Source: an uncultured Collinsella sp.
GTDB taxonomy: Bacteria > Actinomycetota > Coriobacteriia > Coriobacteriales > Coriobacteriaceae
Reading direction: 5' to 3'
Length of the DNA: 64,000 nt
NCBI GenBank assembly: GCA_900546115.1
Contig: URBQ01000003.1
Location: 22,415-86,414, forward strand
Shown here: one piece after another, positions 40,160-64,000 of the stretch
Layout: each line of letters begins with the position of its first letter
Position numbering within the stretch: the stretch's first letter is position 1
Program-made: the position numbers and the translations under genes
Notes under the pieces: generated by a model
What the model saw: the letters and a program-made list of their open reading frames with translations, nothing else
Databases searched by the model: none
Told to the model about the DNA's origin: nothing

Positions 40160-40173
40160 GGGCTATCGCATCA

Positions 40174-40246: not shown

Positions 40247-40276
40247 GTAAGTTTGAGATTCAACCCAAAAAAGTCC

Positions 40277-40305
40277 TTGCACCAAGCAAAACATTCCCCT
40301 ATAGT
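40277..40305 (+). promoter_or_regulatory. Sigma-70-type promoter of tRNA-Ala
   Basis: -35 TTGCAC (40277-40282), 17-nt spacer, -10 TATAGT (40300-40305). The -10 element ends 13 nt before the mature tRNA 5' end. Confidence 0.55.
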
Positions 40306-40318
40306 ATCTCCTCGTCAC

Positions 40319-40394
40319 GGGGGCGTAGCTCAGCTGGGAGAGCGCTTGACTGGCAGTCAAGAGGTCAGGGGTTCGATCCCCCTCGTCTCCACCA
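40319..40394 (+). tRNA. tRNA-Ala (anticodon GGC), CCA encoded
   Basis: Cloverleaf readable by eye. Acceptor GGGGGCG/CGTCTCC has the G3:U70 alanine identity pair. D-arm is TAGCTCAGCTGGGAGAGC, anticodon loop CT-GGC-AG, T-arm GGTTCGATCCCC, 3' end ACCA. Confidence 0.9.
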
Positions 40395-40407
40395 TCGTGA
40401 ATGCAAG

Positions 40408-40431
40408 GCCACTCAATCGAGTGGCTTTTTT
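40408..40431 (+). terminator. Intrinsic terminator after tRNA-Ala
   Basis: gccactc-aatc-gagtggc followed by tttttt. Confidence 0.65.
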
Positions 40432-41895: not shown

Positions 41896-42762
41896 GTGCG
41901 GATGGTCGCTACGCAATGCGGGGGGGGGGCTCCCCGACTCGGGGACGAAGTTTTGGAAGAGAAGTTGTCGGATAAAACTCAATATGCAACGGATGCGCCC
42001 GCGGGGGCGGCACTGATCGCTCAGGCCATGGACCGGCGTGAGGGAGCCGGTCGCTACAGGGCCATGCAATCCATTATGGACTGGGATCGCTCGCGCCTGG
42101 CCTATCGTGCCGCGAAGCGCGCATTCGACATCGTGTTCAGCGGCTGCGTGCTGTCCGTCATCGCCGTTCCGAGCCTGGTACTGGCGGCGGCCATCCGCCT
42201 GGAGAGCGAGGGCAACCCGTTCTACAGCCAGATCCGCGTTGGTCAGACCCGCTCCGACGGCAGCCTGTCCACCTTCCGCATGTGGAAGTTCCGCAGCATG
42301 TACAAGGACGCCGACGAGCGCCTCGCGGAGCTCAAGGGGCAGAACGAGATCGCCGGCGCCATGTTCAAGATGAGGGAGGACCCGCGCGTCACCAAGATCG
42401 GCAAGTTCATCCGCAAGCACTCCATCGACGAGTTCCCGCAGTTCTTGAACGTGTTCCTGGGCCAGATGAGCGTGGTGGGCCCGCGCCCGCCGCTGCCCAA
42501 CGAGGTGGCCGAGTACACCGAGTATGATCTGCAGCGCCTTGCGGTAAAGCCTGGGATTACTGGCTGGTGGCAGGTGACGGACCGCAACGACACAGATTTT
42601 GACGGCATGGTACGGCGTGACCTTGAGTACATCGTCAAGCGCGGTGTGACCACCGATCTGAAGATCGTGGCGCTCACGGTCGTCGAAATGATAACGGGGG
42701 GGGTGCCTGCTAGAGGCATTTCCCGAGACTTTTCCGTTGGCGGGGTGCTAGCCCATGCCTAG
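41896..42762 (+). CDS. Undecaprenyl-phosphate sugar phosphotransferase (bacterial sugar transferase family, small PGT), copy 1
   Basis: Motifs KRAFDIVFS, MWKFRSMY, REDPRVTKIGKFIRKHSIDEFPQFLNV, SVVGPRPPLP and KPGITGWWQV. The true start is uncertain: GTG 41896, or ATG 41902/42028/42064/42076. Confidence 0.8.
   Translation: MRMVATQCGGGAPRLGDEVLEEKLSDKTQYATDAPAGAALIAQAMDRREGAGRYRAMQSIMDWDRSRLAYRAAKRAFDIVFSGCVLSVIAVPSLVLAAAIRLESEGNPFYSQIRVGQTRSDGSLSTFRMWKFRSMYKDADERLAELKGQNEIAGAMFKMREDPRVTKIGKFIRKHSIDEFPQFLNVFLGQMSVVGPRPPLPNEVAEYTEYDLQRLAVKPGITGWWQVTDRNDTDFDGMVRRDLEYIVKRGVTTDLKIVALTVVEMITGGVPARGISRDFSVGGVLAHA
41920..41929 (+). repeat. Homopolymeric G10 tract at the 5' end / leader of the first phosphoglycosyl transferase gene
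   Basis: cgcaatgc-GGGGGGGGGG-ctcccc, counted directly (41920-41929). Confidence 0.9.
42696..42703 (+). repeat. Homopolymeric G8 tract near the 3' end of PGT copy 1, 52 nt before the PGT copy 2 start
   Basis: ataac-GGGGGGGG-tgcctgc, counted directly. Confidence 0.9.
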
Positions 42763-43399
42763 GAAACCTACCGGGACCCTCTTCTATCGCATATGCAAGA
42801 GAACGTTCGATATAACCTTCAGCGCCGGGTGTGCCGCGGTGCTGGCGATTCCCATGGCCGGTGTCTGCGCCGCGATCTGCGCGGAGTCACCGGGCTGCCC
42901 GGTCTACACGCAGGAGCGCGTGGGCAGGGGTGGACGGGTGATCCGCGTGCTTAAGCTCCGCAGCATGGTCGCCGACGCAAACGACGTACACAAGTACCTG
43001 AGCCCTGAGCAGCTGCGCCAGTGGGAGGTGGAGCGCAAGGTCGACGACGACCCACGCATCACAAAGGCGGGCAAGTTCATCCGCAAGTGTTCCATCGACG
43101 AGGTACCGCAGTTCCTCAACGTGCTAAAGGGCGACCTGTCCGTAATCGGCCCGCGTCCCATCACGCGCGACGAGCTCGAACAGCACTTCACCGACGAGGA
43201 GAAGGAGGAGCTGCTGAGCGTCACCCCGGGCATTACGGGCCTGTGGCAGGCGACCGACCGCAACGCCGCGACCTTCGAGAGCGGCATGCGACAAAAGATC
43301 GAGCTCCACTATGTACGGAACCGTTGCTTCCGTATGGACTGGAAATGTTTCAGGGGCACCTTTGGTGCCATGTTCGGAAAGAAAAGGACGGGACGTTGA
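42755..43399 (+). CDS. Undecaprenyl-phosphate sugar phosphotransferase (small PGT), copy 2
   Basis: Motifs KRTFDITFS, LKLRSMV, DDPRITKAGKFIRKCSIDEVPQFLNV, SVIGPRP and TPGITGLWQA. Its start overlaps the copy 1 stop by 8 nt. Confidence 0.8.
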   Translation: MPRKPTGTLFYRICKRTFDITFSAGCAAVLAIPMAGVCAAICAESPGCPVYTQERVGRGGRVIRVLKLRSMVADANDVHKYLSPEQLRQWEVERKVDDDPRITKAGKFIRKCSIDEVPQFLNVLKGDLSVIGPRPITRDELEQHFTDEEKEELLSVTPGITGLWQATDRNAATFESGMRQKIELHYVRNRCFRMDWKCFRGTFGAMFGKKRTGR

Positions 43400-44607
43400 G
43401 GATTCTGATGGTCAGCCAGCATTACTGGCCGGAACATTTTCAGATAACCGAGATTTGCGAGGAGCTTGTACGGCGCGGCCACCAAGTGACTGCGCTTGTG
43501 GGTATTCCTAACTACCCTAAGGGCGTTGTGCCTGAGGAATACCTGCATGGCAAGAATCGCCAGCAGATTCGAAACGGTGTCAACATCATTCGCGTGGAGG
43601 AGATTCCCAGGAAGCCCGGAATCAGGGGGCTTGCGAAGAACTACATCAGTTACATGCGGGAGGCCGACAAAAAGATTGGTAAGCTGCCGGGCGATTTCGA
43701 CGTGATATTCGCGTATCAGCTGTCTCCTGTTCTTATGTCCGAACCTGCCATGCGAATGAAAAAACGAACCGGCATCCCCGTGCTCCTGTATTGTGCCGAC
43801 ATCTGGCCTGATGCAATCAAGGCGATGCTGCCCGACAAACTCAACTTCGCGATGCCACTTATTAAGGCTATGAGCTCGAAGATTTACCGTCAGGCAAACG
43901 TTAGCGCGACAAATGCCAGCTCCTATGTCGATTACTTTGATCAGGAGTTTGGAATCAGCCGAGATAAGGTATTTTACCTGCCGCAATACGCCGAAGATTC
44001 ATATCTGGACATGGACCTTACTGCGCGTCCTTCGGATAAGGTGAGGTTCTTGATCATGGGCAACATTGGCAAGCTTCAGTACATGCCGTGCGTGCTAGAG
44101 GCCGTGAACACGCTCAAACACCGCGACGATTTCGAGCTGCACATTGTAGGTGACGGTTCCGCCATGCCGTACTGCAAACAGTATGTTGCTGAACACGAGC
44201 TGCAAAAGCATGTCGTGTTCCACGGGCGTCGTCCGTACGAGGAGATGCCGAACTACTATCGCAACGCTGATTGCTGTTTGCTTACGCTTAATGTTCCCGG
44301 AGCCCCTGGAATCAATTCGACGCTTCCCAGTCGCCTGCAAGGTTTCATGGCTGCTGGCAAGCCGATTCTTGCCTCTATCGACGGTTCCGCAGTGCAGGTC
44401 ATCAACGATTCTGGGTGCGGCAAGGCGGTTCCTGCCGGCGATGCCGAAGGCCTGGCGAAGCTCATGAGGGATTTTCTGGATAACTCCGACTCCTATGCAT
44501 CCTGCGGTGCGAATGGCCGCACTTACTACAAGGCCAATTTCACCAAACAACGGTTTATGAACGAGATCGAAAAGCTTCTCGTTTTGACGATGAAAGGCGC
44601 GCAATAG
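43396..44607 (+). CDS. Glycosyltransferase family 4 (WbuB-like, 6-deoxy-L-HexNAc transferase type)
   Basis: (L)RILMVSQHYWPE start (TTG 43396 overlaps the upstream stop; alternative ATG 43408). The YWPE N-terminus and position directly before the dehydratase/reductase/epimerase trio match wbuB-type genes. The upstream part of track ORF 43021 overlaps PGT2 and is rejected. Confidence 0.7.
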   Translation: MRILMVSQHYWPEHFQITEICEELVRRGHQVTALVGIPNYPKGVVPEEYLHGKNRQQIRNGVNIIRVEEIPRKPGIRGLAKNYISYMREADKKIGKLPGDFDVIFAYQLSPVLMSEPAMRMKKRTGIPVLLYCADIWPDAIKAMLPDKLNFAMPLIKAMSSKIYRQANVSATNASSYVDYFDQEFGISRDKVFYLPQYAEDSYLDMDLTARPSDKVRFLIMGNIGKLQYMPCVLEAVNTLKHRDDFELHIVGDGSAMPYCKQYVAEHELQKHVVFHGRRPYEEMPNYYRNADCCLLTLNVPGAPGINSTLPSRLQGFMAAGKPILASIDGSAVQVINDSGCGKAVPAGDAEGLAKLMRDFLDNSDSYASCGANGRTYYKANFTKQRFMNEIEKLLVLTMKGAQ

Positions 44608-45666
44608 ATGACTAACACTTCTACTTTCAAAGACAAGACCCTCATGATTACGGGCGGCACCGGCTCGTTCGGCAACACCGTGCTAAAGCACTTCATGAAC
44701 ACCGACCTGGCAGAGATCCGCATCTTCTCGCGCGACGAGAAGAAGCAGGACGACATGCGCCACCGCCTGCAGGAGAGGTCCCCGGAGCTCGCCTCCAAGG
44801 TGCGCTTCTTCATCGGCGACGTTCGCAACGCCCAGAGCTTGCGCGACGCCATGCACGGGGTGGACTACATCTTCCACGCCGCCGCCCTCAAGCAGGTGCC
44901 CTCCTGCGAGTTCTTCCCCATGGAGGCCGTGCGCACCAACGTCATCGGCACGGACAACGTGCTCCACGCCGCCATCGAGGAGGGCGTCGACCGCGTCGTG
45001 TGCCTGTCCACCGACAAGGCGGCCTACCCCATCAACGCCATGGGTAAGTCCAAGGCCATGATGGAGTCCATCATCTACGCCAACGCCCGCAACGGCGCCG
45101 GCCGTACTACCATCTGCTGCACCAGCTACGGCAACGTCATGTGCTCGCGCGGCTCGGTGATCCCGCTGTTCATCGACCGCATCCGCAAGGGCGAGCCGCT
45201 CACGGTCACCGACCCCAACATGACCCGCTTCCTCATGAACCTGGACGAGGCCGTGGACCTGGTGCAGTTCGCCTTCGAGCACGCCAACCCCGGCGACCTG
45301 TTCATCCAGAAGGCGCCGGCGTCCACGATCGGCGACCTCGCCGAGGCTGTGCAGGAGGTCTTCGGTCGCACGGGCACCCAGGTCATCGGCACCCGCCACG
45401 GCGAGAAGCTCTTCGAGACCCTTATGACCCGCGAGGAGCGCCTACGCGCCGAGGACATGGGCGGCTACTACCGCGTCGCCTGCGACTCGCGCGACCTCAA
45501 CTACGACAAGTTTTTCGTTGAAGGTGAGGTCCATACCCAGGCAGATGACGCATATACGAGCCATAATACCGAACGTCTCGATCTACAGGGAACGATTGCC
45601 AAGATCAAGACCGCCGAGTATGTACAGCTTGCGCTTGAGGGCCGTGAGTACGAGGCGGTGCAATAA
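44608..45666 (+). CDS. UDP-N-acetylglucosamine 4,6-dehydratase/5-epimerase (FnlA/CapE/WbjB/WbvB family)
   Basis: Motifs LMITGGTGSFGN, IFSRDEKKQ and STDKAAYPINAMGKSKAM, matching the characteristic CapE-type short-chain dehydratase. GC is clearly higher than in its neighbours. Confidence 0.88.
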   Translation: MTNTSTFKDKTLMITGGTGSFGNTVLKHFMNTDLAEIRIFSRDEKKQDDMRHRLQERSPELASKVRFFIGDVRNAQSLRDAMHGVDYIFHAAALKQVPSCEFFPMEAVRTNVIGTDNVLHAAIEEGVDRVVCLSTDKAAYPINAMGKSKAMMESIIYANARNGAGRTTICCTSYGNVMCSRGSVIPLFIDRIRKGEPLTVTDPNMTRFLMNLDEAVDLVQFAFEHANPGDLFIQKAPASTIGDLAEAVQEVFGRTGTQVIGTRHGEKLFETLMTREERLRAEDMGGYYRVACDSRDLNYDKFFVEGEVHTQADDAYTSHNTERLDLQGTIAKIKTAEYVQLALEGREYEAVQ

Positions 45667-45668
45667 CC

Positions 45669-46523
45669 TTGCGGTTTCTTGTACTTGGGGCCTCCGGAAT
45701 GGCAGGCCACCTAATTTCTCTATATCTGAAGGAAGCCGGTCATTCCGTTACGGGATTCTCTCGACACGATCTTCAGTTTCTAAATTCCCAGATTATCGGT
45801 GACGCAACAGATGTTGATACCCTTAAGCAGGTTGATTGGAATGGCTACGATGTAGTTGTTAACTGCATTGGCGTATTAAACAAAGCCGCTGAAACGAATC
45901 CCAACGCCTCGTGGCTCAACGGTGAACTTCCGCATTTTCTTGCTGACGTGACTGCCGATTTGCCAACGCGCGTGTTTCATATGAGTACCGACTGCGTCTT
46001 TGCTGGCAACACGGGTCCCTACACTGAGTGGAGCAAGCCTGATGGGGGGAGCGCCTACGACCGGACCAAAGCCGCGGGCGAACTCGATGATGAAAAGAAC
46101 TTGACGTTCCGTAACTCCATTGTCGGGCCAGACATTAATCCCAACGGCATAGGGCTTCTCAACTGGTTTATGAAGCAGAATGGACCTATTAAGGGCTTCA
46201 CGGGGGCAATTTGGACTGGGCTCACCACCCTCGAATTGGCGAAAGCGATGGAGCATGAGGCGCGCGAAGAAGCCCACGGCTTGGTGAACATGGTTCCCGA
46301 GGGGTCCATCAACAAATATGAACTTCTCCAGCTGTTTAATCGGGACCTTCGCGGTGAATCCGTTGAGATATTTGCCGATGCGGGCCTGCAGCTAGATAAG
46401 ACGCTCGTACGCACCAACTTCAAGCCAACCTACCGTCCTAAATCTTATCCAGAGCAGGTGCACGAGATGGCTGGTTGGATAAGGGATCACAAGGAACTCT
46501 ACCCCCACTACGAGGTGATATAG
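45669..46523 (+). CDS. NAD(P)-dependent sugar reductase, RmlD-like (second step of a 6-deoxy-L-HexNAc pathway)
   Basis: TTG start 2 nt after the upstream stop. Rossmann motif VLGASGMAGH, and STDCVF...YDRTKAAGE (YxxxK). At 284 aa it is RmlD/WbvR-sized, shorter than FnlB/CapF as I recall them. Confidence 0.65.
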   Translation: MRFLVLGASGMAGHLISLYLKEAGHSVTGFSRHDLQFLNSQIIGDATDVDTLKQVDWNGYDVVVNCIGVLNKAAETNPNASWLNGELPHFLADVTADLPTRVFHMSTDCVFAGNTGPYTEWSKPDGGSAYDRTKAAGELDDEKNLTFRNSIVGPDINPNGIGLLNWFMKQNGPIKGFTGAIWTGLTTLELAKAMEHEAREEAHGLVNMVPEGSINKYELLQLFNRDLRGESVEIFADAGLQLDKTLVRTNFKPTYRPKSYPEQVHEMAGWIRDHKELYPHYEVI

Positions 46524-46525
46524 AT

Positions 46526-47653
46526 ATGAGCAAGCTAAAACTTATGGTGGTTATGGGCACCCGCCCGGAAATCATCAAGTTGTCCGAAATCGTGCGCAAA
46601 GCCGATAAGTACTTCGACCTCTCTATCGTGCATACAGGGCAGAATTACGACTATGAACTGAATAAAGTATTCTTCGATGACCTCGGCATTCGAGAGCCCG
46701 ATCACTATTTAGGCGTGGTCGGCGACGACCTTGGCCAGACTATGGGCAATGTGATTTCTAAATCTTATAAGCTCTTTTCTGAAGAGCGTCCTGATGCAAT
46801 TTTGGTTCTGGGCGACACAAACTCATGCCTTTGCGTGATTTCCGCAAAACGCCTGAAGATCCCCGTATTCCACATGGAGGCAGGCAACCGATGCAAGGAT
46901 GAGAACCTGCCCGAAGAGGTCATCCGACGTGTGGTAGACGTGACGAGTGACGTGAATCTTTGCTATTCCGAGCATGCGCGCCGATATATCCTTGATACCG
47001 GTGTAAAGCCGGAGAACACATACGTTGTGGGTAGTCCCATGGCAGAGGTTCTGGATCACTGCATGGCGAACATCGAATCATCTACGGTGCTCAATGAACT
47101 CGGTTTGGAAAGCGACGGGTACATCTTACTCTCTGCCCATCGTGAGGAAAATATCGACATCGAGGATAACTTCTTCAGCTTGATGAATGCTGTCAATGCG
47201 TTGGCAGAGAAATACGATGTTCCGGTACTTTATAGCTGCCATCCGCGGAGCGCCAAGATGATAGAGCATCGCGGTTTTAAGTTTGATAGTCGAGTTATCC
47301 AACATAAGCCCCTTGGATTCTTTGATTATAACCAGCTTCAGAGAAATGCCCTGTGCGTCGTTTCCGACTCGGGAACGCTTCCTGAGGAAGCATCCTATTT
47401 CAAGTTCCCTGCGGTTAGCGTGCGAACGTCTACCGAGCGTCCCGAAGCTATGGACGCTGGCGTGTTTTGCGTTGGATCCATTACGGCCGAGCAGGTTCTT
47501 CAAGCGGTCGATCTTGCTGTGACGATGCATGCCAATGGTGATGACGGCATAGAGGTCCCTGCCTACGCCGACCGCAACGTTGCCACGAAGGTGATAAAGC
47601 TCGTTCAGAGCTACACCGGCATTATAAATAAGATGGTGTGGAGGAAGCAGTAG
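46526..47653 (+). CDS. UDP-N-acetylglucosamine 2-epimerase, non-hydrolysing (FnlC/CapG/WbvD type)
   Basis: Translates MSKLKLMVVMGTRPEIIKL, with HTGQNYD and GDTNS motifs. ATG 46526 lies 2 nt after the upstream stop. Confidence 0.88.
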   Translation: MSKLKLMVVMGTRPEIIKLSEIVRKADKYFDLSIVHTGQNYDYELNKVFFDDLGIREPDHYLGVVGDDLGQTMGNVISKSYKLFSEERPDAILVLGDTNSCLCVISAKRLKIPVFHMEAGNRCKDENLPEEVIRRVVDVTSDVNLCYSEHARRYILDTGVKPENTYVVGSPMAEVLDHCMANIESSTVLNELGLESDGYILLSAHREENIDIEDNFFSLMNAVNALAEKYDVPVLYSCHPRSAKMIEHRGFKFDSRVIQHKPLGFFDYNQLQRNALCVVSDSGTLPEEASYFKFPAVSVRTSTERPEAMDAGVFCVGSITAEQVLQAVDLAVTMHANGDDGIEVPAYADRNVATKVIKLVQSYTGIINKMVWRKQ

Positions 47654-47654
47654 C

Positions 47655-48791
47655 GTGAAATACGTTCAGATTAACGCGTATTCGGGCGGTTGGGCTGATT
47701 CAATCATATTCAAGAAACACCGCGAGCTCATCGCCAGGGGCGAAGAGTCATGGGTTTTTTGGGCTCGCGGCAACCACGAGCAAGATGAGCATATGCAGTG
47801 CATCGCCTCATACCCCGAGGTATGCGTCGACGTGCTGCAAACGCGCTTGGACGGAAAACCTGGCTTCCATTCAAAGGGCATCACGCGCAGGCTGCTGGCG
47901 AAACTCGACGAGATAGACCCTGATGTGGTGCACCTACATCTGCTGCTCGGTTACTACATCAACATTGAAATGCTCTTTAATTGGCTTGCGAGCCACCGCT
48001 GCAAGGTAGTTTGGACTCTGCACGACTGCTGGGCGTTTACGGGGCATTGCATCTACTTTACATATGTGAAGTGCATGCAGTGGAAGACTAGGTGCGCCGC
48101 GTGCACTTCATGTCCGCAAAAACGGACGTACCCCGAAACGCTTGCGAGCGACGGCGCGGTGCGTTGGTCGTTCGATCAAAAGAAACGCTTGTTCACCATG
48201 CTATCGCCTGAGCGCGTGCAACTTGTAACGCCCTCGCAATGGCTTGCCGATCTGGTAAGGCAGAGTTTCTTGGCCAAATACGACGTAAAAGTCGTAAACA
48301 ACACCATCAATTCCGATGTTTTCAAGCCTACGCAGAGCGACTTTCGTGAGCGCTATAACATAGGCGAGCGTTTTATGGTTTTGGGCGTTGCATCGAAGTG
48401 GAGCAAGCGCAAAGGCTTGCCTGACTTCGTGCGACTGGCTAAGGAACTCGACAGTGAGGGTTTCGCCCTGGTGCTTGTGGGTCTGAACGATAAGCAGATA
48501 GAGCAAGTGCAAAGTGAGGTTTCAACTGTCGTGGCCTTGGGCAAGACTAGTACCGTCCAAGAGCTCGCCGAGGTCTACACTGCAGTCGACGTGTTCTTCA
48601 ACCCAACCAACGAGGACAACTATCCTACGGTCAATTTGGAAGCCGAGGCCTGCGGCACACGCGTGGTGTCCTACGATACTGGCGGTTGCCGGGAAACATT
48701 GCGCCGCGCGGATTCTCATGTTGTTGACAACGTGTTCGAGGCCCTAGAGACCATTCTTTCTTTGCATGAAAGAACCGACGCGGCAAGCTGA
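47655..48791 (+). CDS. Glycosyltransferase (GT4-like)
   Basis: GTG start after GGAGGAAG. Motif TLHDCWAFTGHC...C..CP is typical of a GT4 subgroup; C-terminal motif NLEAEACGTRVVSYDTGG. Confidence 0.7.
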   Translation: MKYVQINAYSGGWADSIIFKKHRELIARGEESWVFWARGNHEQDEHMQCIASYPEVCVDVLQTRLDGKPGFHSKGITRRLLAKLDEIDPDVVHLHLLLGYYINIEMLFNWLASHRCKVVWTLHDCWAFTGHCIYFTYVKCMQWKTRCAACTSCPQKRTYPETLASDGAVRWSFDQKKRLFTMLSPERVQLVTPSQWLADLVRQSFLAKYDVKVVNNTINSDVFKPTQSDFRERYNIGERFMVLGVASKWSKRKGLPDFVRLAKELDSEGFALVLVGLNDKQIEQVQSEVSTVVALGKTSTVQELAEVYTAVDVFFNPTNEDNYPTVNLEAEACGTRVVSYDTGGCRETLRRADSHVVDNVFEALETILSLHERTDAAS

Positions 48792-53853: not shown

Positions 53854-54089
53854 AAATTTTTATGAGTGCATTTTAACCCACAAACGCTATTTCCCCTGTG
53901 ACTAAACCCCTCAAACCCTGAGTCTCGGTATCTCGATTTCTTCAAGCGAAATGAGAGCAACAGCAGCGTGAACCTGATCGTAGGCGGTTTGCAGATTGAG
54001 GCTGATCGTGATGCTCGAGTACTGCTGGACGGCGGATGCCTTCGCGGAGATGTCCGATGCGGAACCCGTCATGCCTATCGTCTCATCAG

Positions 54090-54527
54090 CATCGCACGGT
54101 GCTCTTTCAGCGATTTAAAAAGGGAGTTCTGCCGAGCGAATTGGCGTTACTTTCTAAGGAAAATTTGAATGTTTATGGTATAAGTTCTACTTCTACCAAT
54201 GAGCAATACCGTGAGTTAATGGAGCCTGGGGCAGTTAATTATCCACAACGTCTAACCGCGCTCAAATATTTTCATGACAAGGGGACGAAAACCTGGGTTA
54301 CTATGGAGCCATATCCCACTCCGAACGTTTTCGATCAGGATTTAAGCCAAGTACTCGAAAAGATAACCTTTGTCGATCGTATTGTGTTCGGTAACACACA
54401 TTGCGACAAGAGAACTACCGCGTTTGTCGAACATGAAGGCACTTACCGAACTTCTGCAGAGAAGGTCAAGGCTTTTTGTGTTAAGCATAAGATTGAATGT
54501 CATATAAAAAAGGGAATGGTGAGGTGA
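54090..54527 (+). pseudogene. Probable C-terminal remnant of a radical-SAM (SplB/DNA-photolyase-like) protein
   Basis: The segment ...NVYGISSTSTNEQYRELMEPGAVNYPQRLTALKYFHDKGTKTWVTMEPYP... resembles the distal TIM-barrel strands of that family. No CxxxCxxC cluster motif lies upstream in any frame. Confidence 0.35.
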
Positions 54528-55808: not shown

Positions 55809-56036
55809 ATGGCTAAGACTAGGGCCAAGACTAGGAAGGTTGGAAAGCGAACCAATATCGAAAAAATCCTTAGGGCGAAGGTTTCCGAGATCGATTCAAG
55901 GACAATTGCAGCGGGCGACGCAGCGACCACTGTACTTTTGAAGAAAATTGCCTCCACCGATGTGCGAGATTACACGAAGCTGAGGAAACAGGGTCCTTCA
56001 GACGAGATAGCCAAGTTGATCTCTTCCCGCATGTAG
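55809..56036 (+). CDS. Small hypothetical protein (75 aa, basic N-terminus)
   Basis: ATG lies 6 nt after GGGAGG and 3 nt after the upstream stop, suggesting translational coupling. No recognisable motif. Confidence 0.4.
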   Translation: MAKTRAKTRKVGKRTNIEKILRAKVSEIDSRTIAAGDAATTVLLKKIASTDVRDYTKLRKQGPSDEIAKLISSRM

Positions 56037-56348
56037 GAGCCTAGCCGCTAGTCGCTTGGGTCGATCTTTGTGCATCCTCTGTTCTTATATCAACGGAAAC
56101 CGTGTGGAACCTTCTAAGGTCTTCATTCGTCGGATTCATTTTCATCAAATTATCTGGTGAGATTAAAGATATTGCAGCTGTGAATAACCTATTTACAGCT
56201 CTCTAGCTCTATGCTGCAATTTTATTGTCGTTACTCTTATGTGTCTCAAGCGATTTGACATGTGTTATCAAGTCATTTCTCGTTTTGGGGACGGAAGAAG
56301 TAGGGGGCATTTAGTCAACTTCGACTACGTTGGCAGTCGTCTACTGTG

Positions 56349-56774
56349 GACACTCAGCAGCTGCTGGCCAACTACAAGGACGTGCCCCATAACCTGATCT
56401 TGGCCATCGCGGAGGCCAACCGCACCCGCACGGACTTCGTGGCCGACGAGGTACTGCAGATGGTGTGGGACCGCGTGTACGGGGGCAAGCCGAAGCCGGT
56501 CGTGGGCGTCTACCGCCTGACGATGAAGTCCAACTCCGACAACTTCCGCGCGAGCTCCATCCAGGGCGTCATGAAGCGCGTGAAGGCCAAGGGCGTGCCC
56601 GTGGTGGTCTACGAGCCCACGCTGGACGACCCGGAGTTCTTCGGGTCCGAGGTGACCCACGACCTGGAGGCCTTCAAGGCCGGCTGCGACGTGATCGTGG
56701 CCAACCGCTGGAGCGACGAGCTCGCGGACGTGGCGGACAAGGTCTACACGAGGGACCTGTTTAAGAGGGACTAG
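56349..56774 (+). pseudogene. ugd: UDP-glucose 6-dehydrogenase, 3' fragment 1 (about the last 140 codons)
   Basis: [33 protein letters not shown]...[28 protein letters not shown]...[11 protein letters not shown] is colinear with the C-terminal third of Ugd as I recall it. There is no N-terminal or catalytic part upstream, and GC jumps at the left junction (~56346). Confidence 0.85.
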
Positions 56775-56828
56775 GGGAGAGTATTCCCAACTGCGATTTT
56801 AGCTTTATCTACAAGTCGCATTGTCAAG

Positions 56829-56867
56829 AAAGAGGTCATATCGGCTAACGCCGATATGACCTCTTTT
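56829..56867 (+). terminator. Strong intrinsic terminator after ugd fragment 1
   Basis: 15-17-bp stem agaggtcatatcggc / gccgatatgacctct with loop taac, followed by tttt. Confidence 0.75.
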
Positions 56868-57308
56868 GGTATAAGTCTGATTCCTTTTGCAGCTGGTGAG
56901 CGATGCGATGTATATAGCACGTTAAGCAATGAACACCATTTTCCCTGCTTTTAGCCTTGAACACCAAGAACGGGACATCGCCCGTGCTGCAATCGACTGC
57001 GTCGGGCTTCTTGATCCAGCCCGTCAGGCTTCCGACTTCGTGGCTCAGCCAATGCGTCAACTCCACGTGGGTCATCCCGGACATTTTGCAAGGCTCCATG
57101 CTTGCATTGGTGACGACGAGGTTTAAGTACATGGCGGAGCACGAGTGTGAAAGGAGGGGATATCCGGATATGTCGGAGCTGGAAGAGACTGATGAGCTGA
57201 ACAAGAATACGGAGCGTTAGATTGGTCCGCACGGATTGTTAGGCTAAGCTCGGATGTTGCCTTTGTTTATATTTGACGTCTTAACCTTCGATGTGAAAGA
57301 AGAGGTCT

Positions 57309-58175
57309 ATGCATCGTTTATCCTGCCGGTCTGTTCTCCCTATGATTCGCCTTGTCCGTGGTTTTAAAGAACAAAAATGGGCTAAGCAGTTTTTGCGTGG
57401 CGATATATACATGAATACCCTAGGGTATTTTTGGAATGAGGGAAACGTGGAGCAGCAGGACTTTCTTGAGGGGGCCTGCGCATCTTTTGACCCCCATATC
57501 ATGCGGGGCTTTCCTATAGATTTACTCGGTGTCCTTGCAAAAGAATCGTATCCAATACCGAGAGGCGCAGGCTACTGTAATGTGTGCTGCTTTTCGTGTG
57601 TCCTCATTAAGCAAGTAGATACGAGAATCGACTTAATTGAATTGCCCGATCCGGGCCTTGATCTTGGTTCATGGATTGTTGTTATTGACAATCCATGCGA
57701 ACTTATATCTAGGCTTAGGACAGCCGTTCTACAATTGGGTTATGACTTTGTAGCTGCTCCGGTTGAATATAGAGATAGCGTTCAGTTGAATCCCTCTAAA
57801 GTTGTTAAATCAACAATGGATTTAAAATCTCATGCTCCATTACCTGCTTATATGGTTTTTCCAAATGGGATTCCACATTTTAATGCAGGAGTGTTTGTAA
57901 AGAATGTTCGTTATGCAAACCAAGCTGAATGGCGTATCGCCGTTTATAGGAATGAACGGTCATATGAGCCTCTAATTCTTAAGCTTGGCGATTTGACTGA
58001 TATCGCTCATTTGGCTAGGAGAACGGAGCTTACTGATGATCTGCAACGGGTGCACGGTTGTTCAGTCCCCTATTTGACTAGAGGGTGCTTTGGAACGAAG
58101 ACTTCTCAAGAACTATCTCAGGATCTCTTTAAGTTAGGTAATGAGGAGCTTTTCATTACGCTGACGATTGGTTAG
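57309..58175 (+). CDS. Hypothetical protein, 288 aa (possibly DUF2971-like)
   Basis: Low-GC ORF with AGAGG before the ATG. The N-terminal pattern FLRGDIYMNTLGYFWNEG...DFLEG and the C-terminal FVKNVRYANQAEWRIAV recall DUF2971-type proteins, from memory only. Confidence 0.55.
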   Translation: MHRLSCRSVLPMIRLVRGFKEQKWAKQFLRGDIYMNTLGYFWNEGNVEQQDFLEGACASFDPHIMRGFPIDLLGVLAKESYPIPRGAGYCNVCCFSCVLIKQVDTRIDLIELPDPGLDLGSWIVVIDNPCELISRLRTAVLQLGYDFVAAPVEYRDSVQLNPSKVVKSTMDLKSHAPLPAYMVFPNGIPHFNAGVFVKNVRYANQAEWRIAVYRNERSYEPLILKLGDLTDIAHLARRTELTDDLQRVHGCSVPYLTRGCFGTKTSQELSQDLFKLGNEELFITLTIG

Positions 58176-58345: not shown

Positions 58346-60391
58346 CTATTCAGACTCAGCATCACAGCCTGTATCACGCCTCTTTTCGATCAGCTTTTTA
58401 GCGAGCTCGAGGACGCTCTCGTCGTAATATGGCCAGTCTACGAAGTTTTCGAGGTACCCGCGCCCCGTTGCGGCCGACAACTCATCGTTTATCTTGAGTG
58501 TAATCGCGACGAGCAAGGTTAGCATGCGATAGTAATCGGATCGAATGTTCATCGCATCAGGGTCGGTGATCGGTGAATGCGCATGGTCGTATCTGTTCCT
58601 GAGACCCTGTGAGTTGGGGAAAGAGGCGTCGTTGAACATGTAATCGAGATATGCTGCCTCGTCGGGCGCGAACAGCTTGCCGCAGTACGACAGCATTTCG
58701 TCTGAGACAAGCCCATCGATGAGCGCTAAATCACCGTCTCCGCATCCCCCAAGCGCAATCGCGCCATTATCCCAAACGGCCTTCAGGCAAATTGATCGAG
58801 GGGTTGGGGAGAGAGCGCCTGTCTTTTCGCACACACTTACCAGTTGTCGGTCGACTAATTGTTGGAGTACCTCGGCGTATACATCATCATAATCGTCGAA
58901 GGTGACCATAGCATTCGAAATTAAATCGAAGAAGCAGCGAGCACGGTCGTTATGAACTCTTCTGAATGTCAGCATGCACTGGTCGGAGAACAGATAGAAT
59001 CCCCATCTGTTAAAGCAGGCTCCGTCGATTGCGTACTTTTTCTCAGAGAGCGCGTTGAGGGTTCCAAAAGATTTAAAGTTATCATAGGGGAAATAGTCTC
59101 CGTCGATTTTTCCAATCCTCGAATATATTGAATAGGACTTAACGGCGCGCTCAATCTCTGGCCCTATCGACTTGCATTTGTCGAGCCACGAAGCTCCGCT
59201 TGACGGCAGCGCCAAGCTGAAACCATTGATTGAGTACTCCTCTGCAAAATAAACGTTGTACGTCCATTCGAGTGCATCTTCGAGCCTTGTACCGCGGCTT
59301 TCGAGGAAATTCGCGTATGCGATAACTTCGACATTGGCGAGAGATTCCCAGGTGTTGGAGATCGTATTCATTCGGTATTCCCCCAGCACGTGGGGCCCCA
59401 GCGTCGCAAGCAGGCCGCTCTCCTCGTGGGGGTGAGCAGGCGAGGCCATGAGACCGCTTCGGTCTACTACGTCCAGTAGGTATCTGCAATTGTTCATGAT
59501 GCTTGCGTGATCGGTGTATTTACCGAGCCACGTTTCGCCAAAGCTATAGGTCAAAGTTAGGCCGTTGACCTTTATTCCTTTGCAAGCAATCTGTTCAGGG
59601 TCGATTTGTACACCGGCTCCGTACTCAAGTCCAGCGCCTTGTCGGAATAGCTCATCCATGGCCTTATCGTGGGCCTGCTTTGCGCGCACTTTGACGTCCG
59701 GCGACGGAGAGAATTTGCATTTTGTTGCGCCGGAAGGCCAATTGAAAAGGGCCTCCATATAATTCGGGTTAGCGCGCTGGTCGTCAAGGTAGCCTGCCAT
59801 TATCGAATCGAAGTCGCCCTGGGAAAAGCATTTGGGGAGGTAGATTGCGTTCTGGCTCCTTGATTCCGTCGCGTACTCGCGAATGAGCAGCTCAGCGGAA
59901 TAATAAGGGTTGTCAACTAGTGATTTTCTTATCTCTGCATCGAATAATTTGACGAGCTTGTCGTTCTCCAAGATAGGAGCTAGGCATTCGATTTGCCGCG
60001 AGAGAAGTTCGTCAATTTCCTCGCCGGAGATCATTTTCTCTGCGCCGCAGGCGTGCACCAGGCCCCAGAACTGAGTGGCGTACTGCATCTCGAGTTCCTC
60101 GTAAATACCAAGGATTCCCGAAGACGCGAGCGTCTCCCTCGTATACTTGCAAGCATTCGTGAAGAGCGCGGAAACAACGCTTGCAACATCGATGTCTTCT
60201 GCTTTCTCGAACAATTCAGGGACCGTTTCGAATGTGAGCTTGAGTTGATGTGCCTCTATTGCGTCGTTAATCGTTGCGATTTGATTGTGAGGCCCCTCCT
60301 TCAGGATATAAAGACAACGGTCTATGAAAAGTCCTACGGCCCAGTCACTGCGGTCATAGGAAACGATCCTAGTGTGGTTGAATTCTCGCAA
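58346..60391 (-). CDS. Hypothetical protein, 681 aa, with C-terminal RNxxxH (HEPN-like) motif
   Basis: Long uninterrupted low-GC ORF. TTG start lies 6 nt after GAAAGG; the first internal Met is near residue 100. RNRYDH is encoded at 58583-58600. No P-loop or other familiar motif. Confidence 0.6.
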   Translation of the reverse strand: MREFNHTRIVSYDRSDWAVGLFIDRCLYILKEGPHNQIATINDAIEAHQLKLTFETVPELFEKAEDIDVASVVSALFTNACKYTRETLASSGILGIYEELEMQYATQFWGLVHACGAEKMISGEEIDELLSRQIECLAPILENDKLVKLFDAEIRKSLVDNPYYSAELLIREYATESRSQNAIYLPKCFSQGDFDSIMAGYLDDQRANPNYMEALFNWPSGATKCKFSPSPDVKVRAKQAHDKAMDELFRQGAGLEYGAGVQIDPEQIACKGIKVNGLTLTYSFGETWLGKYTDHASIMNNCRYLLDVVDRSGLMASPAHPHEESGLLATLGPHVLGEYRMNTISNTWESLANVEVIAYANFLESRGTRLEDALEWTYNVYFAEEYSINGFSLALPSSGASWLDKCKSIGPEIERAVKSYSIYSRIGKIDGDYFPYDNFKSFGTLNALSEKKYAIDGACFNRWGFYLFSDQCMLTFRRVHNDRARCFFDLISNAMVTFDDYDDVYAEVLQQLVDRQLVSVCEKTGALSPTPRSICLKAVWDNGAIALGGCGDGDLALIDGLVSDEMLSYCGKLFAPDEAAYLDYMFNDASFPNSQGLRNRYDHAHSPITDPDAMNIRSDYYRMLTLLVAITLKINDELSAATGRGYLENFVDWPYYDESVLELAKKLIEKRRDTGCDAESE

Positions 60392-60635
60392 CGCTAACCT
60401 TTCTCGCGTAATGTCGACTGCACAAGAATAACGCGTGTTCGACCTCGTCGGTGGTCAACGAAGGCGCCTAACGGGGTTCCGATGTAAAGCGGGTGGACCT
60501 TGAGGCCTCTGCGGTACCCCGCTTCTTCCCTTATGATGCCAGATTCGGTGAGTACGCGTTGTTGGCCAAAGCGAGCCCTGTCGATAAGGTTGCTGCAATC
60601 AAAGGCCCCGAGGTGCACGTCAGCGTACACCACTA

Positions 60636-60885
60636 GAAGTCCAACTCCGACAACTTCCGCGCGAGCTCCATCCAGGGCGTCATGAAGCGCGTGAAGGCCA
60701 AGGGCGTGCCCGTGGTAGTCTACGAGCCCACGCTGGACGCGCCGGAGTTCTTCGGCTCCGAGGTCACGCACGACCTGGAGGCCTTCAAGTCCGGCTGCGA
60801 CGTTATCGTAGCCAACCGCTGGAGCGACGAGCTCGCGGACGTTGCGGACAAGGTGTACACGAGGGATCTGTTTAAGCGGGACTAG
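60636..60885 (+). pseudogene. ugd: UDP-glucose 6-dehydrogenase, 3' fragment 2 (about the last 83 codons)
   Basis: ...[82 protein letters not shown] is colinear with 56525-56774. Homology starts abruptly at 60636. Confidence 0.85.
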
Positions 60886-60940
60886 GGGAGCGGAACGGCC
60901 TGCGCTGGGCGGCCGCAGTCTAAATAAGAAACTTAGTTGA

Positions 60941-60984
60941 GTACGGGGTGTATCGACGCCAGTCGATACACCCCGTACTTTGTT
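60941..60984 (+). terminator. Strong intrinsic terminator after ugd fragment 2
   Basis: 17-bp stem gtacggggtgtatcgac / gtcgatacaccccgtac with loop gcca, followed by tttgtt. Confidence 0.7.
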
Positions 60985-61218
60985 AATCTCGCTAAATACA
61001 TTTACAGTCACTGCGGTCGCGAACTCAATGACATTTATCCCAGTGGGTGTATGAGAAGGTGTGGCGTGCGCCGCGGAACTGGATCGTTTTGCTATCGACA
61101 ATCGTGCTCTCACTAATGCGGCGTATGTCATATCATCAAGCTCACCGTGGCAGTTTGGTGCAGCCTTTACCCGAGGGCGTTCGGATTGCCAGAGAAAGCG
61201 GAGGAGCGTGCAACTTTG

Positions 61219-64000
61219 ATGAGCAGAGAAATCGAAATCAGGGACAAAATCACCAGACTCGATCCTGCTGGCTTTCAGAACCTTGCCCAGGAATTGCTTA
61301 CGCAATATTTTAAGTATGATAAGCCCGTGCACAGGGGGTCTGCCGCCCATTCGGCGGCAACCGCCCCTGGAACGCCGGACACAATCTGGCTTTTGCCCCA
61401 CAACAAATTCGCCTATCTCGAATGCGGCCATTATCTAGATAGAGCTGATGCGAAGAATAAAATCGAATTGGATATCGAGAAGTGCCTGGAGGCCGAAAGA
61501 GAAGAGCTCAATTCTGGGCAGCTTGTTAAGATAGTCATTGCGTATTCTTGCCGGAGGCTAGACAGTTCTGATCTCAACTATCTAAGAGGCATTGACGATC
61601 GCATTGATCTTGTGGGCACGGACGAGATGGCGTGCATGTTGGCCCGGCGGTACCCAAATCTTGCGAAAGAGCATCTGGGCATCGAGGCAGGTACTGGGCA
61701 AATTATGTCCCCGGATGAATTCGAATCCGCAGTTGAAAAGAATAGCTTCGCATCAACCCTGAAAGTCGATTTGCTTGGCAGGGATAAAGAGATCAACGAA
61801 CTTCTCGCCGCGCTCGATGAGAATCAGTTCGTCTTGGTGTATGGGCGTCCTGGATGCGGGAAGACCAAGCTTTGCGTAGAGGCTCTGCGCCAATTTTCGA
61901 ATGGCAGCGGCGCTTATCCTCTTGTCATTAAATCGAACAGGTTGCCAATCTGGAACGATTTGGCTAACGATGTACCCAAAGATGACCCTTCGTTAATTCT
62001 GCTCGACGACGCCAACGAGCTTTCAGACCTCGAAGGGTTTGCGGACTTCGTGTCTAACAGGGGTAATATCAAGGTTCTTATGACGGCAAGAAATTACGCG
62101 ATCGGGTTCGTTAAGAGCTCCGTTTCACAGTACTGCAAGCCTTACCTCTATGCAGTCAACCCGCTTGACGAGGAGACGGCCTTACATGTGGTCGAGAACG
62201 GATTTGGTATCGCGAAAGGGACAGCCTCTGCGGATATAATTCGCTTATCGAGGGGCAACATGCGCTTGGCCTTCGCGGCGGCCGAGGTTGCTAAGGAACG
62301 CGGGGACGAAGTATTCTCCACGATGCCAAGTCTTATAGAAGCTTGCTACGGAGATAAGGCTTCTCGTCTGGGCAGCGACTTCAAAAAAGCGGCGACGATC
62401 GTCTCGGTTTTGGATGCTCACAGGATAGAGGAGAATAAAGACCTGGATAACCTGCTTTCCAAGGTAGGGATTTCTCATGACAGATATGTCGATGCTTGCG
62501 CCGCCCTGTGCCACGACGAACTGGTGGATGCATGTCAGGATATGATGGCGGTAGCGCCGGGCGAACAGGTTTTGAGGGATTATTTGCTCTACCAGGCCTT
62601 CATCGCCGAGAAAAGTTTGTCTCTTTCCGACGTGGATGAGCTGGAGTGCGGCAATGCTCGATGCCCCGGTATTGTCGCCATCCTTGTAAACAATTTCTAC
62701 AGCGAAGAGCTTATTTCCTCCTTGAAATCGCAGCTGAACGACATTTGGGCGTTGGCGAACGGTAGGAAACGATGGAAAATGGTAAGCGATTACAATTTCC
62801 TCCTCGGTGAGAAGGGCCTTGAACATATTCTCGGGGCAATCGAAGACACCGAACCCGGAAACTACGATTACCTTGCCTGTAAATTCGACAAGGCTTCCGG
62901 ATTCTATTCGCAGAAATCTCGTATCCTCACATCGCTCGCGTTTTTTCTGCATGCCCCTCAATTCAGCGAGCCGGAAGAGCTGTTCTTTATGGCATTGGAG
63001 AAGAACATTTTGCCTCCACGGGAGGCGAAGGAGACACTCACAACGAGCATGTCCTTCAACGAGAACTCGTATTCGGACGGGTTTCGATACGAGAACGAGG
63101 TCCTTGAACGCCTTTCGTGCGAGTTTCGCAAAACAAAGGAGGATAGGTACGGGGTTTTGCTTGCCTATTATGTCGAGGCTTTACTGGCGGCAGTGTACGA
63201 GGGCCGGACGAGGATGGAGGGAAACAAAGTCACGTTCATCCATGGCAACCACCTCTACACCCAGGCGATGATCGAGTTGCGGAAGCGAGCGATCGCCTGC
63301 CTCAAAGAGCTCAGAGATTGTCATGAGCTGATCCGTCTCTGCGATTCGGTTATTACCGGGCTTCGGGGTATCGGCGGCGAGGACGGTGCCGGTCGGTTGT
63401 GGAAGGAGACCTTGGAGGAGGCGTATAAAGGATATATTTCCCGAATCGAGTCGATTGAGATTTGCAGCTTGCCTGGGTTTGTTCAACTGGAGAAAGAGCT
63501 CATTTCCCAAGGTATCATCGCCGAAGAGGGACTCCCGTTCCTCAATGTGTCGCCCAAGATGCGGATTGCAGCCCAAATCTTCTTAGACGACTCCCGCGGA
63601 CACGATGTCTCGGAGGAATTGATCGAGCTTATTCAAACGGCTGGCTCGTCAGAGCTATTGAAGGCGATCTCGATTGTGTGTTCTGCCGGCCGGCAAAGCT
63701 CAACTGGGATTCCATTCCCAATCCTGAGTGACGTCATGATTCTTGGTGCGGAGACTTTGACCGAATGCGCAGAGCCGATCATCCTCTCTGATGTTCCCTT
63801 GTATACAGTCCCGGACGATTTGCTCATTCGCTGGATTGACTTGCTCGGCATCGATCGGGTTCGCGGTCTTGCCTTGAAGCGACAGGAGAATGAGATTCCC
63901 GAATGGCTTAGTCGAATTGACGAAGCGCGGTTAAAGGAGTTCGGTGTCTGTCCAGAGCTGGCAAGGGATATCGAGGAAGGAGCCGACAAATACGGCGAAA
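61219..64000 (+). CDS. Large P-loop NTPase (STAND/AAA-like) with restriction-endonuclease-like N-terminal domain and long helical C-terminus; 3' end beyond window
   Basis: Hand translation shows + frame 1 open from the TAA at 61114-61116 to nt 64000. ATG 61219 follows GGAGGAG. Walker A YGRPGCGKTK (61843-61866), Walker B LILLDDANE, VLMTARN. N-terminus has LDPAGFQNLAQELL...GTPDTIWLL...AYLECGHY. It is not in the supplied track, which has no in-window stop for it. Confidence 0.75.
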   Translation, partial: MSREIEIRDKITRLDPAGFQNLAQELLTQYFKYDKPVHRGSAAHSAATAPGTPDTIWLLPHNKFAYLECGHYLDRADAKNKIELDIEKCLEAEREELNSGQLVKIVIAYSCRRLDSSDLNYLRGIDDRIDLVGTDEMACMLARRYPNLAKEHLGIEAGTGQIMSPDEFESAVEKNSFASTLKVDLLGRDKEINELLAALDENQFVLVYGRPGCGKTKLCVEALRQFSNGSGAYPLVIKSNRLPIWNDLANDVPKDDPSLILLDDANELSDLEGFADFVSNRGNIKVLMTARNYAIGFVKSSVSQYCKPYLYAVNPLDEETALHVVENGFGIAKGTASADIIRLSRGNMRLAFAAAEVAKERGDEVFSTMPSLIEACYGDKASRLGSDFKKAATIVSVLDAHRIEENKDLDNLLSKVGISHDRYVDACAALCHDELVDACQDMMAVAPGEQVLRDYLLYQAFIAEKSLSLSDVDELECGNARCPGIVAILVNNFYSEELISSLKSQLNDIWALANGRKRWKMVSDYNFLLGEKGLEHILGAIEDTEPGNYDYLACKFDKASGFYSQKSRILTSLAFFLHAPQFSEPEELFFMALEKNILPPREAKETLTTSMSFNENSYSDGFRYENEVLERLSCEFRKTKEDRYGVLLAYYVEALLAAVYEGRTRMEGNKVTFIHGNHLYTQAMIELRKRAIACLKELRDCHELIRLCDSVITGLRGIGGEDGAGRLWKETLEEAYKGYISRIESIEICSLPGFVQLEKELISQGIIAEEGLPFLNVSPKMRIAAQIFLDDSRGHDVSEELIELIQTAGSSELLKAISIVCSAGRQSSTGIPFPILSDVMILGAETLTECAEPIILSDVPLYTVPDDLLIRWIDLLGIDRVRGLALKRQENEIPEWLSRIDEARLKEFGVCPELARDIEEGADKYGE

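Follow-up and report, generated by a model that had tools for sequence, protein, structure and literature searches.

The subject of this analysis is a long open reading frame (ORF) at the 3′ end of a 64,000-nucleotide (nt) stretch of DNA, referred to here as the window, from an uncultured Collinsella sp. (GenBank assembly GCA_900546115.1, contig URBQ01000003.1). The 5′ part of the gene occupies positions 61219..64000 of the plus strand (2,782 nt, 927 codons of about 1,209) and is cut by the window end. With a probability of about 0.7, the ORF encodes a single-chain Avs-type immune receptor, that is, an antiviral STAND protein of the bacterial NLR-like kind, belonging to an uncharacterized family. 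The product is predicted to combine on one chain an N-terminal effector, a STAND NTPase and a large C-terminal sensor, and this architecture, together with the genomic context, suggests an antiviral function. An initial annotation of the same DNA had proposed an effector, an NTPase and a repeat sensor in the arrangement typical of antiviral STAND proteins, and each of the three parts was verified independently here.

Direct translation of frame 1 of the plus strand gave no stop codon over positions 61117-64000, a run of 961 codons, in agreement with the initial annotation, which had also pointed out that an ORF of at least 927 codons was absent from the ORF list supplied with the sequence. The frame is missing from that list because it runs off the window; only antisense ORFs are listed, and all three of these shadows (62245-62961, 63181-63576 and 63633-63989, minus strand) were found. 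A search of a protein database clustered at 90% identity returned 176 matches, and those listed were 80-93% identical to the window protein and 1,209-1,220 amino acids (aa) long. By comparison with these homologues the full length would be 1,209-1,220 aa, with about 282 residues falling beyond the window end. The closest allele (locus L017, from an uncultured Collinsella sp.) showed 97.4% protein identity. The ratio of nonsynonymous to synonymous polymorphism (pN/pS) was 0.17-0.25 against seven close alleles, with zero stops, which indicates a functional gene; the open frame is unquestionably a genuine gene under purifying selection. No stop interrupts the frame, and the homologues and pN/pS values bear out the earlier view that the gene is real. 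A homologous stretch in Collinsella aerofaciens D6t1_180914_F6 (locus L019, 10001-13632) is 3,632 nt long, which is not divisible by 3, and contains 23 stops in straight translation. This copy may be a frameshifted pseudogene, or the assembly may contain an indel error.

The first ATG of the open frame (61219-61221, plus strand) is the best-supported start, and translation is taken to begin at 61219 because most family members begin MS(R/K)xxxI. A Shine-Dalgarno-like GGAGGAG lies at 61200..61206 on the plus strand, 12 nt before this ATG and 9 nt before an in-frame TTG at 61216. This TTG and a second one at 61186 are used as starts in some homologue gene calls, and they account for the database homologues that begin MMSREIE or MPEKAEERATLMSREIE. 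A start at TTG 61186, as in the relative P0001, was considered unlikely: it runs into the Shine-Dalgarno sequence, and MSR is where most homologues begin.

Domain boundaries were placed at residues 1-184, 185-450 and 451-1209 on the basis of AlphaFold2 models and alignments. The whole-chain AlphaFold2 model, built from an alignment of 86 sequences, had a mean pLDDT of 90.7 and a pTM of 0.69. When this model was searched with Foldseek, the first-ranked structure was that of Avs4 with a bound phage portal (8dgf; E = 1.4e-10, 1,144 aligned columns), and human SAMD9, EfAvs5, NLRP2, Cdc6/Orc1, Apaf-1 and CED-4 came next. Structure prediction and Foldseek found a nuclease-fold N-terminal domain and, together with Pfam searches, a STAND-type NTPase.

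The N-terminal domain (61219..61770, plus strand; residues 1-184) is the predicted effector, and AlphaFold2 and Foldseek assign it a restriction-endonuclease, or PD-(D/E)xK, fold. A domain-only model of these residues had a pLDDT of 87.1. In both AlphaFold2 models the domain is arranged as α-α-β-β-β-α-β-α-β, with a core topology of α-β-β-β-α-β formed by helix 16-31, strands 36-38, 55-59 and 63-70, helix 75-96 and strand 102-109. In a Foldseek search of the PDB, all of the top 20 matches and almost all of the lower ones were nucleases of the PD-(D/E)xK fold. These included FokI (E = 1.2e-3), SfsA, the cap-snatching endonucleases of lymphocytic choriomeningitis virus (LCMV) and Lassa virus, and the N-terminal domain of Avs4, with EcoT38I, BstEII, Card1, N.BspD6I, NucS/EndoMS, EcoO109I, BamHI, MUS81 and XPF as further matches. 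The highest TM-score, 0.59, was to the Avs4 N-terminal domain (root-mean-square deviation 4.9 Å, 174 columns). No Pfam family, Mrr_cat included, matched residues 1-184 in the window protein (E ≤ 0.1), in P0001 (E ≤ 10) or in 39 relatives (E ≤ 0.01). The domain had previously been likened to Mrr or PD-(D/E)xK; the fold was confirmed by structure prediction, and the Mrr label has no sequence model behind it.

The putative active site departs from the canonical one. P53-D54, the "PD" of the nuclease motif, is encoded at 61375..61380 (plus strand) and stands at the start of β2, with strand 55-59 directly after it. In the alignment of 86 relatives D54 never varies (86/86), and 83 sequences have P53. 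On β3, E68 (61420..61422) takes the canonical acidic position and G70 the position of the canonical Lys, so that the strand reads E68-C-G70 and carries no Lys. E68, G70 and H71 are invariant within a nine-sequence alignment centred on Coriobacteriia; across the family, position 68 is Glu in 36, Met in 23 and Ala in 13 of the 86 sequences, and position 70 is Gly or Thr. The next helix (75-96) bears K81-x3-D85 (61459..61473), a candidate relocated catalytic Lys with an additional acidic residue, and both residues are invariant (86/86 each). Q20, on the first long helix, is found in 83 of the 86 relatives, and Q20, G51 and P53 are each conserved in at least 90%. The complete arrangement is Q20-X32-P53-D54-X13-E68-X12-K81-X3-D85. 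The arenavirus NL1 endonuclease has the motif E-X38-P-D-X(11,13)-E-X12-K-X3-D-X2-K, in which the Lys is helix-borne and mutants of D89, E102, K115, D119 and K122 are defective (PMC2940758); the spacing P-D-X13-E-X12-K-X3-D is the same in the window protein and in NL1. Because P53-D54, K81 and D85 are conserved with this arenavirus-like spacing, the site is probably an active variant with a relocated Lys. In such a site D54 on β2, joined in the Coriobacteriia clade by E68 on β3, would bind metal, and the Lys would be supplied by the next helix (K81, beside D85). The glycine at the Lys position had led the initial annotation to suggest that the domain may be variant or inactive, with D54 and E68 singled out. 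The domain does appear to be a variant, and D54 is indeed invariant; inactivity is probably unfounded given the invariant K81 and D85, and E68 is conserved in the Coriobacteriia clade only. Two relatives, P0129 (1,472 aa) and P0138 (1,476 aa), carry an additional N-terminal extension of about 260 residues ahead of the restriction-endonuclease-fold domain. A Pfam scan of the extension in both proteins gave zero matches; its role may be that of a second effector or of an adaptor.

Residues 185-450 are assigned, from motifs and models, as a STAND module consisting of a nucleotide-binding domain, a helical domain and a winged-helix domain (NBD-HD-WHD). The P-loop nucleotide-binding domain (61771..62133, plus strand; residues ~185-305) contains a Walker A motif, GRPGCGKT (G209-x2-G212-x-G214-K215-T216; 61843-61866), a Walker B motif (61993-62010), LLDDANE, with LLDD at residues 261-264 and the acidic pair D263-D264, and a TAR sensor, T289-x-R291 (62083-62091). 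The predicted helical and winged-helix domains (62134..62568, plus strand; residues ~306-450) complete the module; in the AlphaFold2 model they consist of helices over 318-432 and a β-hairpin at 436-447, and they include a nearly invariant G346-N347-x-R349 motif. R188, G209, G212, G214, K215, D263, D264, R291 and R349 are invariant in the 86 relatives, T216 is present in 84 and T289 in 85. The Walker A, Walker B and TAR motifs reported earlier are therefore all present and near-invariant, and Pfam and Foldseek place the NTPase in the STAND type. The window protein matched the Pfam families NB-ARC (28.3 bits, gathering threshold 23.5) and nSTAND6 (28.6 bits, threshold 27.7). Among 39 relatives, nSTAND3 matched 38, nSTAND5 30, NB-ARC 20 and NACHT 16; in the relative P0020 nSTAND3 scored 31.8 (threshold 27.2). 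Pfam detected neither a helix-turn-helix (HTH) nor an output domain of the sort usual in STAND regulators, whether in the window protein, in P0001 or in the relatives.

The remaining part of the chain is a putative sensor, of which the first ~477 residues are encoded in the window (62569..64000, plus strand) and ~282 more lie past its end. It is mostly α-helical. In the AlphaFold2 model residues 451 onward are helical throughout, except for one small β-meander at 659-677, in agreement with the probably helical C-terminus of more than 600 residues that had been suggested from the sequence. Mean column identity among 14 close alleles was 0.94 for the N-terminal domain, 0.91 for the NTPase and 0.85-0.86 for the C-terminal region, and distant relatives align only up to about residue 700. 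Rapid sensor evolution is a trait of Avs sensors, and this conservation pattern is as would be expected for a putative fast-evolving sensor. The best conserved motif of the distal C-terminus in the family is SWSGSE-P, located in P0020 at residues ~1140-1209, past the window end; it is followed by a conserved helix and then by EF close to the last residues. This region may have a role in autoinhibition, oligomerization or ligand contact.

The gene repeatedly has known or candidate defence genes as neighbours, in the window as well as in four other distinct contexts. In the window, a 681-aa protein is encoded upstream on the minus strand (58346-60391) and matches the PADLOC candidate PDC-S56 almost end to end (E = 6e-123), with no Pfam or NCBIfam family. 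Next to it, a 288-aa ORF on the plus strand (57309-58175) matches only phrog_26561 (unknown function, E = 1.5e-14), with no match in Pfam, PADLOC or NCBIfam; it may be a partner of the PDC-S56 protein or a separate small defence gene. At locus L001, which carries a 93% allele, an 813-aa nSTAND3 protein (PDC-S73) occupies the upstream slot and an IstB fragment lies downstream. At L015 (Collinsella sp. AF29-7AC) the order is flippase, DUF2971, nSTAND3/PDC-S73, a remnant of a UDP-glucose dehydrogenase (UGDH) gene, the STAND gene, a second UGDH remnant, AbiH and DUF3825. On the 715-kb contig L005 an intact 419-aa UGDH ends the polysaccharide cluster and is followed by the STAND gene, downstream of which are a CAP12-type TIR protein, a KAP NTPase, and SIR2 with a DUF87/HerA-like protein. 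In two Eggerthellaceae (L002 and L003) the gene is elsewhere in the genome, beside a transposase fragment, and AAA_21, an AAA ATPase with an S8 peptidase, SLFN/AlbA_2 and an HSP90-like ATPase lie onward. Between Collinsella and Eggerthella, the gene thus has at least two genomic contexts that are unrelated. It appears to have moved between loci and genera, which fits horizontal transfer of a defence gene. No conserved partner gene was found across the contexts examined. The cargo hotspot that the initial annotation had suspected is thus supported by the neighbours in all of these contexts, among them the PDC-S56 protein found with PADLOC profiles, and homologues do sit in defence islands in the loci examined, as a qualitative observation.

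In the window the STAND gene follows a cassette consisting of the 681-aa protein and the 288-aa ORF, which is bracketed by two remnants of the UGDH 3′ end. Copy 1 (56525-56779, plus strand) lies in an ORF that matches Pfam UDPG_MGDP_dh_C. Copy 2 (60636..60890, plus strand; stop at 60883-60885) forms the upstream cassette boundary. The two copies are 255-nt direct repeats that are 95% identical; the repeat comprises the stretch from ~240 nt within UGDH up to ~20 nt beyond the stop, and the sequences diverge thereafter. The coding remnant of copy 2 ends at 60885, 333 nt upstream of the ATG, and the remnant-gene junction about 330 bp upstream of the gene that had been noted earlier is therefore this UGDH 3′ fragment. 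UGDH remnants flank the gene on both sides in L005, L006, L010-L012 and L014-L017, so that the hotspot can be described as an array of cassettes delimited by 3′ remnants of a target gene, positioned where the polysaccharide locus ends. The cassette content depends on the strain (PDC-S56 and the 288-aa ORF in the window; nSTAND3/PDC-S73 in L001 and L015). The flanks that were examined showed no integrase.

Other features of this junction were also recorded. At the first remnant, UGDH is present as an ORF only for its C-terminal ~142 aa (56346-56774, within 55809-56774), and 436 nt alone align to the intact 419-aa UGDH of L005; UGDH at the locus therefore looks truncated in the genome of the window. 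Between the second remnant and the gene, a hairpin with a perfect 19-bp stem followed by UUUGUU is predicted at 60939..60980 on the plus strand (-36.6 kcal/mol, z = -8.0 by RNA folding). It looks like a terminator that separates the remnant from the upstream region of the STAND gene, and L015 conserves the hairpin with the following ~60 nt upstream of the gene. A scan of 60600-61400 for consensus promoters and terminators called nothing, this hairpin included. The first remnant is likewise trailed by a strong hairpin (56840-56885). A 345-aa ORF on the minus strand (60394-61431) overlaps the start of the STAND gene and was rejected as a gene; it has no family match and is an antisense shadow of the UGDH remnant, with peptide motifs as in the minus-strand ORF 56325-56660, which sits opposite the first remnant.

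The GC content is 0.58-0.69 across the first 40 kb of the window and 0.47-0.53 from ~46 kb to its end. The drop, from ~0.61 to ~0.48, occurs over ~40000-48000, at the start of a polysaccharide-biosynthesis cluster that includes a Wzy polymerase, a flippase and GT4 glycosyltransferases. The GC content of the ORF itself is 0.51-0.53, like that of the adjacent polysaccharide and defence region. The description of the gene as low-GC thus stands relative to the first 40 kb and does not stand relative to its neighbours, where GC is equal: the composition of the entire 46-64 kb stretch, and not of the STAND gene alone, is foreign to that of the core genome. A radical-SAM fragment in this region (ORF 54036-54527) scored under the Pfam threshold.

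The family to which the window protein belongs is large. Searches of 50%-identity cluster representatives matched 1,050 at E ≤ 1e-3, of which 516 reached E ≤ 1e-30; almost every one is 1,200-1,255 aa long and colinear from residue 1, and identity across the aligned relatives is ~20% overall. Close copies occur in Collinsella aerofaciens, other Collinsella spp. and Eggerthella. A contig search with the Coriobacteriia-centred alignment recovered Coriobacteriia only. A search of the E. coli genome yielded no match, and the window is accordingly not enterobacterial. Distant relatives are found on plasmids of Leptospira and Bacillus (Bacillus cereus), annotated as "hypothetical protein" or "ATP-binding protein". 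A tblastn search against phage genomes gave zero matches, and the family is not phage-borne in that collection. The NCBIfam Avs4 model scored the window protein at 10.3 bits against a cut-off of 1,500 bits, at the P-loop only; of the 39 relatives it matched one (E = 7e-4). When the PDB was searched by sequence, with either the single protein or the 86-sequence profile as query, the matches were all at the level of the P-loop. By these profile comparisons the family is covered by no PADLOC, NCBIfam or Pfam model and is not a sequence member of the named Avs types that have such models (AVAST I-V in PADLOC, Avs4 in NCBIfam). A survey that resolved STAND proteins into 589 clades, 198 of them with a defence association, also named Avs7-24 (Lee et al. 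2026); the present family may well be among those clades.

Taken as an Avs-type receptor, the protein could operate as follows. In the uninfected cell it would be a closed ADP- or ATP-bound monomer, in which the C-terminal helical domain restrains the NTPase and the nuclease. This domain would bind a ligand derived from the phage, for which a conserved phage protein is the likeliest candidate, and binding would open the NBD-HD-WHD module and lead to NTP-dependent oligomerization. Oligomerization would bring the N-terminal PD-(D/E)xK-fold domains together into an active nuclease, which would degrade nucleic acid indiscriminately and abort the infection. A precedent is Avs7, whose effector nuclease is activated through target-induced oligomerization (PMC13581612). 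Several observations weigh against this interpretation. The canonical β3 (D/E)xK is absent, with Met or Ala at position 68 in ~40% of relatives, and the correspondence of residues to the arenavirus site is one of motif spacing, not of structural superposition. Foldseek matches of the N-terminal domain had probabilities of 0.75-1.00 with weak E-values (1e-3 to 1e-2). The last ~282 residues, SWSGSE-P included, lie past the window and outside the AlphaFold2 model. PADLOC profiles gave only P-loop-level matches to the window protein (best mad8, E = 3e-4) and likewise to the 39 relatives; no NCBIfam family covers the relatives, and PHROGs gave a weak PhoH-like P-loop match only and no covering family. 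The defence-island association is qualitative and drawn from a handful of loci. No phage protection or trigger-dependent cell death of any family member was found in the literature searched.

The missing β3 Lys also allows the restriction-endonuclease-fold domain of an Avs-like STAND protein to be catalytically dead, in which case it would be a nucleic-acid-binding or oligomerization module that signals to, or scaffolds, another effector. The Gly or Thr at the canonical Lys position (G70 in the window protein), a β3 acidic residue that is not conserved family-wide (Glu in 36/86), the zero nuclease Pfam matches in any member and the modest E-values of the domain are all compatible with this. 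However, D54, K81 and D85 are invariant in a family with so little overall identity, a pattern typical of catalysis and not of decay, the PD...K-x3-D layout has a validated active precedent (PMC2940758), and the contexts examined offered no conserved partner gene. A dead domain is accordingly thought unlikely. It is highly unlikely that the protein is instead an NTP-dependent restriction-type enzyme of the type IV or McrBC/Mrr kind, one that reads and cuts foreign or modified DNA with its C-terminus as a DNA-reading or regulatory module. The NTPase is of the STAND type, with an NBD-HD-WHD arrangement that matches Avs4, Avs5, SAMD9, Apaf-1 and NLRs and not a McrB-type AAA+ or helicase motor; the C-terminus, at ~760 residues, is α-helical and fast-evolving as is typical of protein-binding sensors; and no conserved methyltransferase or specificity partner lies nearby. 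NTP-dependent restriction enzymes do also combine a restriction-endonuclease fold with a P-loop NTPase, type II and IIS restriction enzymes are among the fold matches of the N-terminal domain, and a defence-island location would fit equally well.

In the superfamily tree, STAND clades that have a defence role intermingle with clades that do not (PMC13581612), and transposase or IstB fragments flank some copies of the gene, both of which would suit a STAND NTPase outside phage defence, either a regulator or a selfish or addiction function of a mobile cassette. This seems very improbable given the nuclease fold of the N-terminal domain, the lack of a detected HTH or output domain typical of STAND regulators, and the known or candidate defence neighbours that recur in five different contexts; the transposase fragments, moreover, are not conserved partners. 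Alongside the Avs-type receptor reading, two proposals that do not exclude each other were considered together, and as a pair they are rather doubtful: that the effector is a cap-snatching-type PD...E...K-x3-D nuclease which cuts RNA and not DNA, and that the Collinsella cassette array is perhaps integrase-free, the ~250-nt copies of the UGDH 3′ end serving as a handle for the gain, loss and exchange of cassettes.

Overall, these results extend a well-established theme and overturn nothing in current understanding. Through them the bacterial NLR-like (Avs) immune receptors gain a large family, one of more than 1,000 clusters at 50% identity. What is new is that the family is unnamed and unrecognized by PADLOC v2, NCBIfam and Pfam; the Avs/NLR-like type of receptor was already known, and among receptors of this otherwise well-known kind only the nuclease site is mildly unusual. 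If the protein is antiviral, it would provide one more sensor, whose phage trigger could be found by existing gene-library screens, a variant nuclease active site to characterize, and a defence marker for the abundant human-gut Collinsella, whose phage-host biology is poorly known. If the effector cuts RNA, the family would represent a large clade of STAND receptors, so far without a name, whose action is to shut down translation or transcripts. The array of cassettes between core-gene remnants is a concrete locus for studying the turnover of defence islands.

Several known systems resemble the window protein in part. The PDC-S73/nSTAND3 proteins of L001 and L015 have a related NTPase and occupy an adjacent cassette slot at the same UGDH hotspot, and PDC-S73 matches four of the 39 family members (best E = 4.3e-9). 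These proteins are ~813-834 aa long, however, and form a different family with no alignment to the window protein outside the NTPase; their N-terminal region matches the N-terminal portion of PADLOC's Aga_TIR-PNTD1-PNTD2 profiles, which describe TIR-containing short-Argonaute partners, and not a restriction-endonuclease fold. The cap-snatching endonucleases (LCMV NL1, the N-terminus of Lassa L, and PA-N) share the PD-(D/E)xK fold and a Lys on the helix after β3, and they recur in the Foldseek search of the N-terminal domain (ranks 3, 9, 11, 13 and others). Unlike the window protein, they are RNA endonuclease domains of viral polymerases with neither NTPase nor sensor. TM-scores between them and the N-terminal domain are low (~0.3), the first-helix residue is Gln in the window protein and Glu in the cap-snatching motif, and E68 of the cap-snatching-like layout is not conserved outside the Coriobacteriia clade. 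The likeness is therefore one of active-site layout only, not of family membership.

The tripartite layout of effector, NTPase and helical repeat is shared with Avs5, Avs6, Avs9 and SAMD9-like STAND proteins. By Pfam comparison the NTPase appears closest to the nSTAND3 type, which is annotated in Avs5 and matches 38 of the 39 relatives; the nSTAND3-type group is structurally allied to SAMD9, Avs6 and Avs9, and structures of SAMD9 and EfAvs5 occupy ranks 3-8 in the whole-chain Foldseek search. The effectors of these systems differ, being SIR2 in Avs5, PNP in Avs6 and AlbA_2 in Avs9, whereas the window protein is predicted to have a restriction-endonuclease fold. Compared with Avs4 (AVAST type 4; SeAvs4, PDB 8dgf), the window-protein family is shorter (~1,209 aa versus the ~1,530-1,580 aa of Avs4 chains of solved structure and of the NCBIfam profile), its NTPase falls in with nSTAND3 and nSTAND5, its sensor is unrelated in sequence to the Avs4 sensor, and the window protein has the helix-borne K81/D85 in place of a β3 QxK/ExK. 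Like the window protein, Avs4 combines a PD-(D/E)xK-fold nuclease, a STAND NTPase and a helical sensor on one chain, and it gives both the best whole-chain Foldseek match and the best N-terminal-domain TM-score.

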